A stretch of 64,000 nt of DNA from positions 705 through 64,704 of the forward strand of contig JAYEJB010000043.1 in the NCBI GenBank assembly GCA_034716415.1, read 5' to 3'. The translations under genes were made by a program, and so were the position numbers. Positions 6,972-10,043 of this stretch are shown here, piece by piece. Source of the DNA: Patescibacteria group bacterium. Its GTDB lineage: Bacteria; Patescibacteriota; Patescibacteriia; SG8-24. Below the pieces are notes generated by a model. The model searched no databases, was not told the DNA's origin, and was given only the letters and a program-made list of their open reading frames with translations. How positions within the stretch are numbered: the first letter of the stretch is position 1; the number at the start of each line of letters is the position of its first letter.

Positions 6972-6989
6972 GATTAAAGACCTAACCCC
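6972..6989. repeat. half-copy of the hairpin repeat family 3 (gattaaagacctaacccc)
   Basis: Matches the right arm of the hairpins at 7985..8042 and 9979..10043. Confidence 0.4.
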
Positions 6990-7030
6990 ATCGTCGCTGT
7001 TCAATCTCGATATATCAATAATCTATCAAT

Positions 7031-7825
7031 ATGTCCTCGAGTAACCCATTTATTTTTACCTCTTCGAAAATCTATTTAAAGTTGCTGCTGCTGTCCGCTA
7101 GTATTGTGTTGACCGGTGTGGGTTGCGTTTCCTTTGAGCGGTCTGCCGATATAGGCAGCAGGACGGCTGACAATCAGCAACAATGGACCGCAGTAGAATT
7201 CTGTACGAATATGAGTTCGGAAATAGAGGGTCGGGCGGCTTCCCTGCAGGTTGCGGATGAGCTTAGGCCGTATGTTGACGCCTGGCAGGCAATCATCATG
7301 AATCATTACGGCCTCTCCGAGTCGGAAATGGGCAACATGTTTCTCCTGGCAGACGTCATTCATTTCCCAAAACAATCTTCGGGCAGGATGACCGTGAGCA
7401 TAAGATATGTGGTGAAGGCTGGCGACGTCTATTTCAAACCGCTATCGCTTGACTTTGAAGCTAGAGCTGACGAGGTCGGTCAGATGACGGGCGCTCAAAT
7501 CAAAGACTATCTGATAGGCAAGTATGTCGCGCAGAGTCTAGATGCAGAAGACCCAACCCAGCAGATAATCGTAATGGATGGCATCAATTTAGGGCTCGCC
7601 AAATCCGCGATTAATCAGGTGAGTCAGAAGTCCTGCGCACAATACGCGACGCTCCTCAAGAGCTGCGATGCGGTAGTCAAACCGATCGACTTCATTATTA
7701 AGCCCGGATTGAACAAGGCGTGGCTGTCGGCTGGCGGTCGCAGCGGCGACCAATGTTATTCTGCGACAGTCGATCTTTTTTCGAGCCAGGTGGACTGCGG
7801 TAGACCGACTCCGTGCAGCATTTGA
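7031..7825 (+). CDS. hypothetical lipoprotein (signal peptide with LTGVGC lipobox)
   Basis: 264 aa with an N-terminal hydrophobic segment followed by Cys. No family recognised. Confidence 0.45.
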   Translation: MSSSNPFIFTSSKIYLKLLLLSASIVLTGVGCVSFERSADIGSRTADNQQQWTAVEFCTNMSSEIEGRAASLQVADELRPYVDAWQAIIMNHYGLSESEMGNMFLLADVIHFPKQSSGRMTVSIRYVVKAGDVYFKPLSLDFEARADEVGQMTGAQIKDYLIGKYVAQSLDAEDPTQQIIVMDGINLGLAKSAINQVSQKSCAQYATLLKSCDAVVKPIDFIIKPGLNKAWLSAGGRSGDQCYSATVDLFSSQVDCGRPTPCSI

Positions 7826-7984
7826 TGCAAGTTGAATTGAGTTCTGAACGCGTCCAAGACAGGCAACCAACAAGAAAAACTCGCCTTGCGCGGGCTTTTT
7901 TTATCGTTTAATGAGGTGGGTATAGGGTCAGAGTGTACTAAATACACAGTAATCAGTTCGCTGAACGGGAGCTAACAATAATCT

Positions 7985-8042
7985 GGGGTCAGATCTTTAA
8001 TCTTTAGTTTTTCCGTTGATTCAAGATTAAAGACCTGACCCC
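7985..8042. repeat. ~58-nt imperfect palindrome (hairpin repeat family 3), copy 1
   Basis: ggggtcagatctttaatctt tagtttttccgttgattc aagattaaagacctgacccc. A second copy is at 9979..10043. Confidence 0.6.
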
Positions 8043-8290
8043 GAAGCAGGTTGGCCTGCTGATGACCGTTGCGGCAATAGGATACAAAAACAGGAACTAA
8101 GTTCGAATCCTAGTCTCGTAGCCAAAGCATTGCGGTGCATATGGACCCAGTAGGGTGCCCTAAATATGGGGCTGTCATATGGACCGGAGTGCTATGACCA
8201 ACCGAAAACCCGGGGTGTAGACCTCGGGTTTTTGCATTGACAGTTGCTAGTCAAAATGCGAAGGTCTTATTGGCTAACTGTACATGAAAT

Positions 8291-8560
8291 ATGGTGCTTA
8301 GAACTCAAATCGCTAAAATTAGCAGATACATAAAGGGTCTTTGGTTCAATGCACGCACGTCAAATCTGCGAGCAGTTTTTGATGATGATTTGGATCAGCT
8401 TATTGATTCTCTGGGTTTGCGCGATCAGTTTGAATCTGGAAACATTCGATGCGGTTTCTGTAATGAAGTAATTACGTTCGATAATTTGCGCGCATTGACC
8501 AAGATCAAGGATGAAATTGTGGTAATTTGTGATAAAGCACAGTGTATTGATCGAATATGA
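8291..8560 (+). CDS. hypothetical small protein with a C-terminal zinc-ribbon-like CxxC...CxxxxC motif
   Basis: 89 aa with CGFCNEV...VICDKAQC. It lies in a segment that is clearly AT-rich relative to the flanks, and its stop overlaps the next start (ATGA). Confidence 0.5.
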   Translation: MVLRTQIAKISRYIKGLWFNARTSNLRAVFDDDLDQLIDSLGLRDQFESGNIRCGFCNEVITFDNLRALTKIKDEIVVICDKAQCIDRI

Positions 8561-9597
8561 TGCAAAGTGCATGGGAATTTATAAAGAGTATCTTGACAGT
8601 AATTGGCGGCCTGTATGTTCTTCTGCGTGCCGTAAATTTGTTTTTTGGAGAAGTAAAAAAGTTCAATGAAATAAGGGCTCGGTTTTTGGAATGGTTATTG
8701 GGCTTTTTTCGGCACCGAGGACTTGTAAAGGCGGCCGTTGCGAGTGATATCGAACAAAACGTTAATGAAATCGTCAGTGATTTACAGGAGGAGTTGCCAC
8801 TCGGTTGGATATCTCGGACATCAATTAAATGGGTACGTGATGCGAGCGCCGAAACTTTGGGGGACGGGGAAGTGATAATTAGGCTGCGTCCGCTTGAGAG
8901 CCAAGATCTTAATTTCCTAACAGCGCTCAACGTATTTTTTCAGAAGTCAGTTTATCCAAAGCTTAAAACAGTCGTTCCAGAGAATGTATGCAAGGCTGTT
9001 GCTTTGAAGTTGTCACAGAGGACGATCAACGTTAAGAAACCATATCTCGAAGACAAATATAAGGAAGATGTCATGGAGCCAATTGTGCAAAATGATCCCA
9101 GTATCGCTTCATATATTGGTCGATATGAAAAAATTGATGAGAAAGGTTTTTTCACAGGTACGTTCATTCGCGAATCTAGTGAGATTGCGAGGAGGGCACA
9201 ATTCAAGGAATTAAGGAGTAGTATCGATAGTGAATTGGACTCCTTGCTAGAGCATATCGAAGCATTTTCTCAGCAGATATCTCCAGGACAACAAAAAAGA
9301 TCTGAAGAGTTATGGTACAGAGAAGGACCTGAAACTAGTTATGCGTTTTTATTGGTCGCGAATCCGGATCGCGTGGGAAATGCCGAACCATATATTAATC
9401 GTGCCAAGGTTAGGGCTGGTGTTGTTGAACGATTATATGTGTTCGGCGCCAGCGGGCAGGAATCATTTGCTCGGACTGTGATATCAATGATTGCAGCTTT
9501 GCCCGAATATGAACTGAAGGAGGTGTTTCAGCTATACCGTGATTATCGGGGTAATTTGGGTGGGATTGGTGCACTGTTAGTTTCTAGGAAGAAGTAA
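8557..9597 (+). CDS. hypothetical protein with an N-terminal TM anchor and a ~310-aa soluble domain
   Basis: 346 aa with one hydrophobic helix at ~8-30. It is translationally coupled to 8291..8560 and AT-rich. No family recognised. Confidence 0.5.
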   Translation: MMQSAWEFIKSILTVIGGLYVLLRAVNLFFGEVKKFNEIRARFLEWLLGFFRHRGLVKAAVASDIEQNVNEIVSDLQEELPLGWISRTSIKWVRDASAETLGDGEVIIRLRPLESQDLNFLTALNVFFQKSVYPKLKTVVPENVCKAVALKLSQRTINVKKPYLEDKYKEDVMEPIVQNDPSIASYIGRYEKIDEKGFFTGTFIRESSEIARRAQFKELRSSIDSELDSLLEHIEAFSQQISPGQQKRSEELWYREGPETSYAFLLVANPDRVGNAEPYINRAKVRAGVVERLYVFGASGQESFARTVISMIAALPEYELKEVFQLYRDYRGNLGGIGALLVSRKK

Positions 9598-9857
9598 CGA
9601 GACTTTGCGTTGCAGTAATGATAAATTCGTCTTCACACAAGAGAGAAGCTCGCGCTTCTCTTCTTTTGTTCCGGTCGTGAGGACATGCCGGACGTAGGCT
9701 TTGTGGTCGAGGCGAGGGACTTTCTTCAGTCCGCTGTCTGCACCTAGTACGCTCTCCATCAGTGATTGATACTTCGCGATTTCCGTATCGAATTTCTTCT
9801 TTGATTAGGTGTCAGGTCTTGAATGTTGGCATTTTTCAAAACGTCCAAACACAAAAT

Positions 9858-9880
9858 AACCGCCTTTCGGCGGTTGTTTT
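9858..9880 (+). terminator. rho-independent terminator (aaccgcc tttc ggcggtt + TTTT), bidirectional in shape
   Basis: 7-bp GC stem with a U-run after it and an A-run before it. Confidence 0.5.
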
Positions 9881-9978
9881 GACGTGGTAGCCCATAGTAG
9901 TGTGAATTGGAACACCTTGATAGGGGAGGTGGGGAGGTGGTTTGGGGAGTTGGTGGTGCGACAATGTTAGTGCGATTC

Positions 9979-10043
9979 GGGGCCGTGTCTTTAATCTTTA
10001 GTTTTTGGGTGGTATCGCTGGATTAAAGACACGGTCCGGTCCC
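9979..10043. repeat. ~65-nt imperfect palindrome (hairpin repeat family 3), copy 2
   Basis: ggggccgtgtctttaatctttagtttttgggtggtatcgctggattaaagacacggtccggtccc. Shares the ctttaatctttagttttt core and gattaaagac arms with copy 1. Confidence 0.6.

Follow-up and report, generated by a model that had tools for sequence, protein, structure and literature searches.

A family of palindromic repeats resembling REPINs in an acquired island of a Patescibacteria genome

Introduction

Why do similar hairpins follow one gene unit after another in a small part of the genome of a Patescibacteria group bacterium (lineage SG8-24)? The locus lies in contig JAYEJB010000043.1 of assembly GCA_034716415.1. The DNA analysed here, called the window, is the stretch of 64,000 nucleotides (nt) from position 705 to position 64,704 of its forward strand, and window coordinates count from the first letter of this stretch. 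A first reading of the letters alone, hereafter the original prediction, reported two palindromes of about 60 nt with a common core, at 7985..8042 and 9979..10043, and a half-copy at 6972..6989. It placed each full hairpin after a gene unit on the same strand, and compared the layout with integron cassette arrays and with hairpin-ended miniature inverted-repeat transposable elements (MITEs) marking insertion points.

In this study, we found that these hairpins belong to a previously undescribed, widespread family of palindromic repeats of about 60 bases. We consider, with a probability of about 0.62, that this is a new non-autonomous family resembling REPINs (hairpins formed by two repetitive extragenic palindromic, or REP, sequences), with a REP-associated tyrosine transposase (RAYT) as its likely partner, and that the window holds orphan copies in an acquired 3.1-kb mosaic. 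REPINs or REP elements and RAYTs have been described in Pseudomonas and Enterobacteria (PMC3116915, PMC3337134, PMC5581495, PMC3479197).

Results

Hairpins and arms in the window

Both palindromes lie where the original prediction had placed them, and both fold better than shuffled sequences (features are collected in Table 1). In hairpin 1, two arms of 20 nt that are 95% complementary enclose a loop of 18 nt and form a 20-bp stem with a single A/C mismatch. In hairpin 2, the arms (9980-9996 and 10021-10037, 94% complementary) form a 17-bp stem with a loop of 24 nt. The two hairpins have GTCTTTAATCTTTAGTTTTT in common, in identical orientation. DNA folding gave z-scores of -4.4 to -5.6 for both, and 0 of 200 shuffled sequences folded equally well. 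A covariance model made from the family described below scored hairpin 1 at 64.8 bits (E=6e-12) and hairpin 2 at 44.3 bits (E=2e-7); its scan of the 64 kb found no copy beyond these two, the next-best match having E>1.

The half-copy was also real and was longer than predicted, as given in Table 1. At 22 of its 25 positions it agrees with the reverse complement of hairpin 1's left arm, and it did not fold by itself in DNA folding. A fourth arm, decayed and overlooked in the first reading, has 71% identity with the left arm, and over 30-41 nt it matches arms in other contigs at 84-87%. A 24-mer allowed up to three mismatches matched four times in the window and not once in 100 shuffles. Because of the shuffle, folding and covariance-model results, we dismiss a chance origin of the window hairpins. 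All copies in the window (two complete, one truncated and one decayed) are inside the island described below, and none lies elsewhere in the 64 kb.

A widespread family with a covarying stem

One scan of metagenome contigs with the pattern GGGG-N5-TCTTTAATCT-N(10-40)-GATTAAAGA yielded 37 contigs from about 20 datasets, of which about 35 are true members; L147 is a chance match and L153 is the same locus as L137. The copies are thus not confined to this locus, and they form a repeat family rather than a set of isolated terminators. There were 32 complete two-arm copies. The arms measure 22-28 nt (GGGGTCAGGTCTTTAATCTTGA...) and the whole element about 52-77 bp, with the consensus (A)(T/C)GGGGTCAGGTCTTTAATCTTGACATTTT - centre - AAAATGTCAAGATTAAAGACCTGACCCC.

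The stem is constrained as a hairpin. Arm variants change on both sides (TCAGG/CCTGA, TCAAA/TTTGA, TCAAG/CTTGA, CCGTG/CACGG and ACAGG/CCTGT), and the variant carried by hairpin 2 is also found in contig L126. In an alignment of 36 sequences, 93.4% of the cells of the 26-pair stem were paired and 10 pairs were altered on both sides. None of 500 shuffles matched the paired fraction or the covariation score and 3 of 500 matched the count of 10, while slid controls were 30-55% paired. As a side observation, the ACAGG-variant hairpin of L156 (4854-4934; contig GC 0.29) is lengthened by 11 complementary bases on each side (TTTCGGGATTG...CAATCCCGAAA), giving a perfect stem of about 33 bp and a loop that is a 7-nt A-run.

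The centre, at 7-33 nt, differs wholly in sequence between copies, even between those with identical arms of 26-28 nt. Such variation in length excludes a duplex operator bound at fixed spacing by a dimeric protein, and suggests that a folded single strand is recognised. We also considered the centre as a guide or captured target and rejected this, as comparison with nearby flanks gave only chance-level matches of 6-9 nt.

The family is not in Rfam, where the long stems gave only spurious matches to microRNA precursors. BLAST against PLSDB plasmids and GenBank phages returned no family match, and specific patterns in IMG/VR returned no match and then one chance match. In viral contigs, a loose palindrome pattern (TCTTTAATC...GATTAAAGA) matched more than 120 times, always by chance and in coding sequence, and a genome-contig scan for a TTTAG variant gave a single chance match in a Saprospiraceae metagenome-assembled genome. 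In the literature, we found neither the family, searched by sequence string, nor relevant work on MITEs or palindromes in Patescibacteria or the candidate phyla radiation (CPR).

Hosts and signs of mobility

The contigs that carry the family range in GC from 0.29 to 0.67, and the element retains its own composition. The SDBV and SDBT contigs derive from Loki's Castle marine sediment. For the threonyl-tRNA synthetase (ThrRS) encoded beside one SDBV hairpin, the best named relatives are from Actinomycetota and Thermoleophilia (63-73% identity). In this Actinomycetota-like population, hairpins lie between housekeeping genes (leuB/leuD, clpP, thrS, metF, nrd, gltX, radA-like/disA, hemB and others), and at least 12 SDBV contigs carry identical arms in such positions. 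Relatives at 72-75% ThrRS identity had no hairpins in 44 kb. Contig L152 encodes an NtrC-type sigma-54 activator, which to our knowledge is foreign to both Actinomycetota and Patescibacteria; the family therefore occurs in at least three very different hosts, namely Patescibacteria, an Actinomycetota-like bacterium and a sigma-54-bearing organism. All-against-all BLAST showed no recurrent neighbour gene. Most members are solitary between housekeeping genes.

No direct repeat of 2-9 bp occurred beyond expectation around 33 copies, so that the elements lack a target-site duplication; we observed only a weak preference for A and then T/C before GGGG. Whole hairpins have been copied as units, since hairpins that are identical including the loop occur at unrelated loci. 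L137 and L157 share 91 nt at 100% at unrelated loci of one sample, and L123 and L154 share an identical 58-nt hairpin plus TT, again at unrelated loci of one sample.

Some element ends carry a further mark. A short tandem duplication of the flank and the terminal 6-30 nt of the arm lies just outside the element at 13 of 66 ends, where the background is about 3%. The form is flank of 5-11 nt, terminal 6-30 nt, the same flank and then the full element, in constant orientation (L131, L133, L134, L139, L146, L148, L149 and L158). Hairpin 2 ends in a similar mini-duplication (GGTCC-GGTCCC, 10030-10043), 7 nt from the native terminator. These duplications could have arisen by slippage at the base of the hairpin or by repair of staggered nicks, or be traces left by insertion.

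A RAYT gene beside a family arm

We scanned 129 open reading frames (ORFs) of hairpin-bearing contigs against Pfam; the results cover the full match table of the first ORF and, for the whole set, the 25 most-matched of 133 families. This first ORF, on the minus strand of contig L123 (1-693), matched Y1_Tnp (2e-14). It also scored 91.1 bits on NCBIfam NF047646, 'REP-associated tyrosine transposase', for which the cut-off is 80, and contains an HUH motif (NHYHIII) and an NPV...WxWSSY region. A family arm lies 215 nt from its start codon, and a full hairpin at a distance of 2.5 kb. Among the 25 most-matched families, the recombinase families were DDE_3 and IstB_IS21. No integrase was near any family copy checked, and the Y1 (HUH) REP-associated transposase was the sole recombinase-type gene linked to the family.

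Mobile DNA is piled up at 1729-6107 of contig L134. An IS630-like element, whose terminal repeats measure 37 nt, is accompanied there by a first family hairpin, an IS21-like istAB pair and a second hairpin. The IS21-like element has four 23-nt terminal repeats and is inserted 1-6 nt from the first hairpin, and the second hairpin lies 178 nt beyond. The family arms were considered as terminal repeats of either element and rejected, as the ends of both are their own and unrelated to the arms. Insertion sequences are known to target REPs. The left flanks of L134 and L157 are 98% identical and then wholly divergent.

Paired copies and a cassette-like layout

A few contigs carry two members 1-3 kb apart, of the same subfamily and in direct orientation, with accessory DNA between them. 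The bracketed DNA is a Shedu (SduA_C) gene in L130, ParA-like and small ORFs in L123, and the IS21 istAB pair in L134. In the window, the gene units precede the hairpins on the plus strand as claimed (ORFs 7031-7825, 8291-8560 and 8557-9597). The inner arm types of hairpin 1 are unlike each other, CTTTAG on the left and CTTGAA on the right. The left type agrees with the truncated arm (CT[A/T]TAG) and the right type with the decayed arm. Because its two inner arms match different copies, hairpin 1 may be a junction of two different copies.

The acquired island and its parts

The window copies lie in a strain-specific insertion. In contigs of the two closest relatives, L160 and L161 (fmt identity 77% and 71%), the O-antigen-ligase-like gene and fmt are convergent neighbours separated by 58-95 nt that hold only a bidirectional terminator. 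Synteny extends to all neighbouring genes (flippase, three glycosyltransferases, ligase, fmt, def, priA and a Memo-like gene), whose products are 66-83% identical in amino acids. Since the ligase adjoins fmt in the relatives, the DNA from 6953 to 10049 is an insertion, and the hairpin-punctuated DNA is variable as supposed. Its GC is 0.40-0.52, against 0.56-0.61 in the adjacent flanks, and its right end abuts the native terminator, which the relatives have at the equivalent position. Family hairpins were not found in 46 kb of relatives (L160, L161 and a third, more distant one).

The island is a mosaic in which at least two foreign pieces are joined, and the hairpins lie exactly at its seams. 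The seams bound a lipoprotein-like gene, a piece made of a relic ligase end and a two-gene module, and the native terminator. The relic is 75% identical to 6905-6952 and nearer to the L160 version, and it is the native ligase 3' end that aligns with the relatives (up to 6940). An independent assembly, L001 (Logan SRR26901924), is 100% identical to window 7765-9829 and ends at the decayed arm (9829); this end could be an assembly-graph branch at a repeat or strain heterogeneity at the seam.

Neither cargo 1 nor the cargo 2 genes matched Pfam, PADLOC or NCBIfam. The label 'lipoprotein' given to cargo 1 in the original prediction stands on its N-terminal signal and Cys, its sole basis, and gains nothing from a protein family. 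Cargo 2 is a candidate defence-associated module. The gene pair is conserved, and in other genomes (L163-L170) it lies directly downstream of restriction-modification (R-M) genes, either type II (C-protein, Dcm-like methylase, R.HinP1I and Vsr) or a type III Mod/Res pair; no hairpins were found at these loci. The structure model of the 346-aa protein (pLDDT 86.7) predicts an N-terminal membrane helix, a helical body and a C-terminal Alba-like nucleic-acid-binding fold of about 90 aa (Foldseek E about 0.02, target TM 0.6-0.76).

In the non-coding leader of the cargo 2 module, CATATGGACC occurs twice at 8139-8190, 37 nt apart, and a terminator-like hairpin (8208-8237) follows just after. In L164 (1088-2774 and 11880-12945), an R-M island with a homologue of the cargo module adjoins tRNA-Ala and a large serine recombinase, and LAGLIDADG ORFs lie downstream, which suggests that this island is inserted in an rRNA operon region.

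The tRNA-3'-end-like fragment in the window has exactly the spacing of a tRNA T-loop, 3' acceptor strand and CCA. Neither ARAGORN nor Rfam called it as a tRNA, and no matching tRNA occurred in the fetched loci. As a weak lead from sequence likeness, it may be an old integrase attachment-site scar. The minus-strand ORF fragment, taken in the first reading for a doubtful integrase fragment, was rejected as such, as it had no meaningful family match.

Table 1. Coordinates of features in and around the acquired island of the window
Feature	Position	Strand	Description
Wzy_C/O-antigen-ligase-like gene	5351-6952	+	left neighbour of the island
Insertion (island)	6953-10049		about 3.1 kb, low GC, strain-specific; between ligase stop and native terminator of fmt
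Truncated copy	6966-6990		right arm only (ACTATAGATTAAAGACCTAACCCCA), lacking left arm and loop; 14 nt past the ligase stop codon
Cargo 1	7031-7825	+	264-aa ORF; N-terminal signal and lipobox-like Cys
Cargo 1 intrinsic terminator	7880-7905	+	canonical; upstream of hairpin 1 and separate from it
Hairpin 1	7985-8042		complete family copy; GGGGTCAGATCTTTAATCTT / AAGATTAAAGACCTGACCCC
Relic ligase 3' end	8053-8100	+	last 16 codons and stop; directly after hairpin 1
tRNA-3'-end-like fragment	8101-8130	+	GTTCGAATCC-TAG-TCTCGTA-G-CCA; directly after the relic ligase stop
Cargo 2	8291-9597	+	two overlapping genes: 89 aa (8291-8560) and 346 aa (8557-9597)
Minus-strand ORF fragment	9577-9806	-	about 76 codons; supposed integrase fragment of 60 aa
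Decayed arm	9808-9838		GGTGTCAGGTCTTGAATGTTGG..., internal deletion
Hairpin 2	9979-10043		complete copy, CCGTG/CACGG arm variant
Native bidirectional terminator	10051-10084		15-nt perfect arms; common to ligase and fmt in the ancestral arrangement
fmt	10091-11041	-	right neighbour of the island

Discussion

Our results are consistent with a REPIN-like element. We propose that each element has an unconstrained centre between two inverted arms of 22-28 nt, and that its single-stranded DNA would fold into a long hairpin. A REP-associated tyrosine (Y1/HUH) transposase acting in trans would recognise and copy this hairpin without target duplication. We infer this mechanism by analogy with known systems and from the single gene neighbourhood in L123. 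The hairpins would most likely have arrived in the island with foreign DNA, or have provided the short dispersed homology or fragile sites for joining its pieces. As the 64 kb yielded no transposase for them, the window hairpins are probably inert relics.

The family resembles REPINs in several respects. Its conserved arms are inverted and form a near-perfect hairpin around a spacer that varies in length and sequence. Bertels and Rainey likewise stress that every REPIN has a spacer of its own between conserved REP arms (PMC3337134). The elements are intergenic and dispersed among housekeeping genes, have no target duplication, and occur as singlets and tandem arms. RAYTs are single-copy Y1 transposases flanked by their own REPs (PMC5581495), and here a RAYT gene lies beside a family arm in one contig, with insertion sequences beside other copies. 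The family differs from REPINs in that its elements are shorter (52-77 bp), with continuous stems of up to about 28 bp (33 bp in L156), and in that the window copies are found only in an acquired island, with no RAYT in the 64 kb.

A further likeness is to the palindrome-associated transposable elements (PATEs) derived from IS200/IS605, which share the lack of target duplication and, in the mechanism proposed here, the dependence on a Y1/HUH enzyme and the recognition of a single-strand hairpin. PATEs, however, have two distinct subterminal hairpins and a fixed target of 4-5 nt, whereas the family has one symmetric hairpin and the weak preference before GGGG.

Several points weigh against a REPIN-like family. 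The RAYT-hairpin neighbourhood is one case only, with its far flank beyond the contig, and tblastn with the L123 RAYT found nothing in the window or the other fetched loci. Unlike classical REPs, single arms here are not convincingly self-palindromic: by inspection of the sequences, GTCAGG can pair with CTTGAC within one arm of the main subfamily, but the window copies and several variants cannot form this pairing. The family also lacks the GTAG-like 5' tetranucleotide of REPs. The same arm sequence occurs in hosts as different as those described above, whereas REPIN-RAYT systems are described as mostly vertically inherited and lineage-specific (PMC5581495). The core was fixed in the scan pattern, which partly accounts for the invariance of TCTTTAATCT and GATTAAAGA. 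The SDBV contigs would come from a single population, judging by GC content and identical arms. Finally, the junction mini-duplications and the layout of hairpin, accessory gene and hairpin are not predicted by a simple REPIN model.

This layout leads to the first alternative, in which genes are exchanged as cassettes by a system other than integrons and the hairpins form its joints. Long perfect DNA hairpins would be processed by a RAYT-type HUH enzyme or by another recombinase, so that compact accessory units (such as a Shedu gene, the R-M-associated module or a lipoprotein-like gene) are captured and stacked between core genes, and the site would circulate across phyla, including the episymbiotic Patescibacteria. 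The paired copies around accessory DNA fit such a system. The bracketing may come from homologous or enzyme-mediated recombination between hairpins, breakage at palindromes, or co-transfer of REPIN-bearing DNA, and we regard a dedicated exchange system as unlikely.

A second alternative is that the hairpins serve the host and are selected at each site, as terminators or attenuators, mRNA-stabilising stem-loops, protein-binding sites or sequences resembling uptake signals. They are intergenic and often at gene 3' ends, and the TAA of the element is the stop codon of several long ORFs that extend into it. The arms show perfect conservation and the loops vary freely, and divergent-promoter contexts are mildly depleted (about 3 of 28, from crude ORF calls). 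However, the stems are not followed by a T-run, and a terminator scan called neither window hairpin. Its calls were two other terminators, at 7880-7894 and 9858-9875, and next to the hairpins both cargo 1 and fmt are served by canonical terminators of their own. Divergent genes flank some copies, such as the one upstream of thrS in L143. Moreover, unrelated loci carry identical copies, the same loci in close relatives of both host lineages lack hairpins, and the identity across phyla is at odds with a lineage-specific uptake signal. We therefore hold a host function to be quite improbable.

A third alternative, close to the original prediction, is that the hairpins are recombination sites of an integron-like or other cassette system, at which a site-specific recombinase integrates circular single-gene cassettes. 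The resemblance to integrons is real in that imperfect palindromes follow successive same-strand ORFs in one orientation, a simpler half-site stands at the start of the array, and the content is variable and absent from relatives. Compact accessory units also lie between direct-orientation hairpins in L130, L123 and L134, and the hybrid-looking arms of hairpin 1 would suit such a site. Circularising 6966-8012 would rebuild one hairpin from the truncated arm and the left arm of hairpin 1. However, the stems are continuous, bulge-free duplexes of 20-28 bp, without the R''-L''/L'-R' boxes, unpaired spacer and extrahelical bases of attC; no GTTRRRY/RYYYAAC core lies at the stem base, in line with the remark in the first reading that no canonical GTTRRRY core is visible. 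The statement that the window has no integrase was borne out in the part covered, that is, the syntenic housekeeping genes that flank the island (1061-14702) and ten further unassigned ORFs, which gave no recombinase, and no IntI gene, attI or Pc promoter was seen. Most copies are solitary between core genes, the cargo homologues elsewhere have no hairpins, and the unlike centres would block crossover by a tyrosine recombinase there. The integron reading is thus not supported, although the layout itself is real, and this alternative is very unlikely.

It is similarly hard to believe that the hairpins are ordinary MITEs, in which two terminal inverted repeats of a DDE transposon have lost the interior and move by cut-and-paste: although they share with Correia elements and Tn3-derived TIMEs a short, non-coding, dispersed form, with inverted arms around a short variable interior and the ability to bracket genes, and although the arms begin with GGGG, as Tn3-family ends do, and transposases are nearby in L134, target duplications of 2-9 bp are lacking, no arm pair enclosing a transposase or parent transposon with the same ends was seen, the IS630-like and IS21-like elements have terminal repeats of their own, and the centres are unrelated even where the arms are identical. 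The phrase 'hairpin-ended MITEs marking insertion points' was nevertheless close, as it foresaw a non-autonomous mobile hairpin family at seams; the part that fails is the ordinary DDE-type MITE.

REP/REPIN-RAYT systems are known mainly from Proteobacteria. Two features of the family described here would be unexpected for this class: the near-identity of the arm sequence between Patescibacteria and Actinomycetota-like bacteria of marine sediment, and the repeated bracketing of accessory or defence genes by pairs of copies. For the annotation of the window the gain is more modest, in that a 3.1-kb foreign mosaic has been delimited and its repeats explained. If the REPIN-like nature of the family is confirmed, the L123 RAYT and its hairpin would offer a substrate for testing RAYT activity beyond model organisms, and the family would provide a sequence tag that traces the horizontal flow of DNA into the reduced genomes of the CPR.

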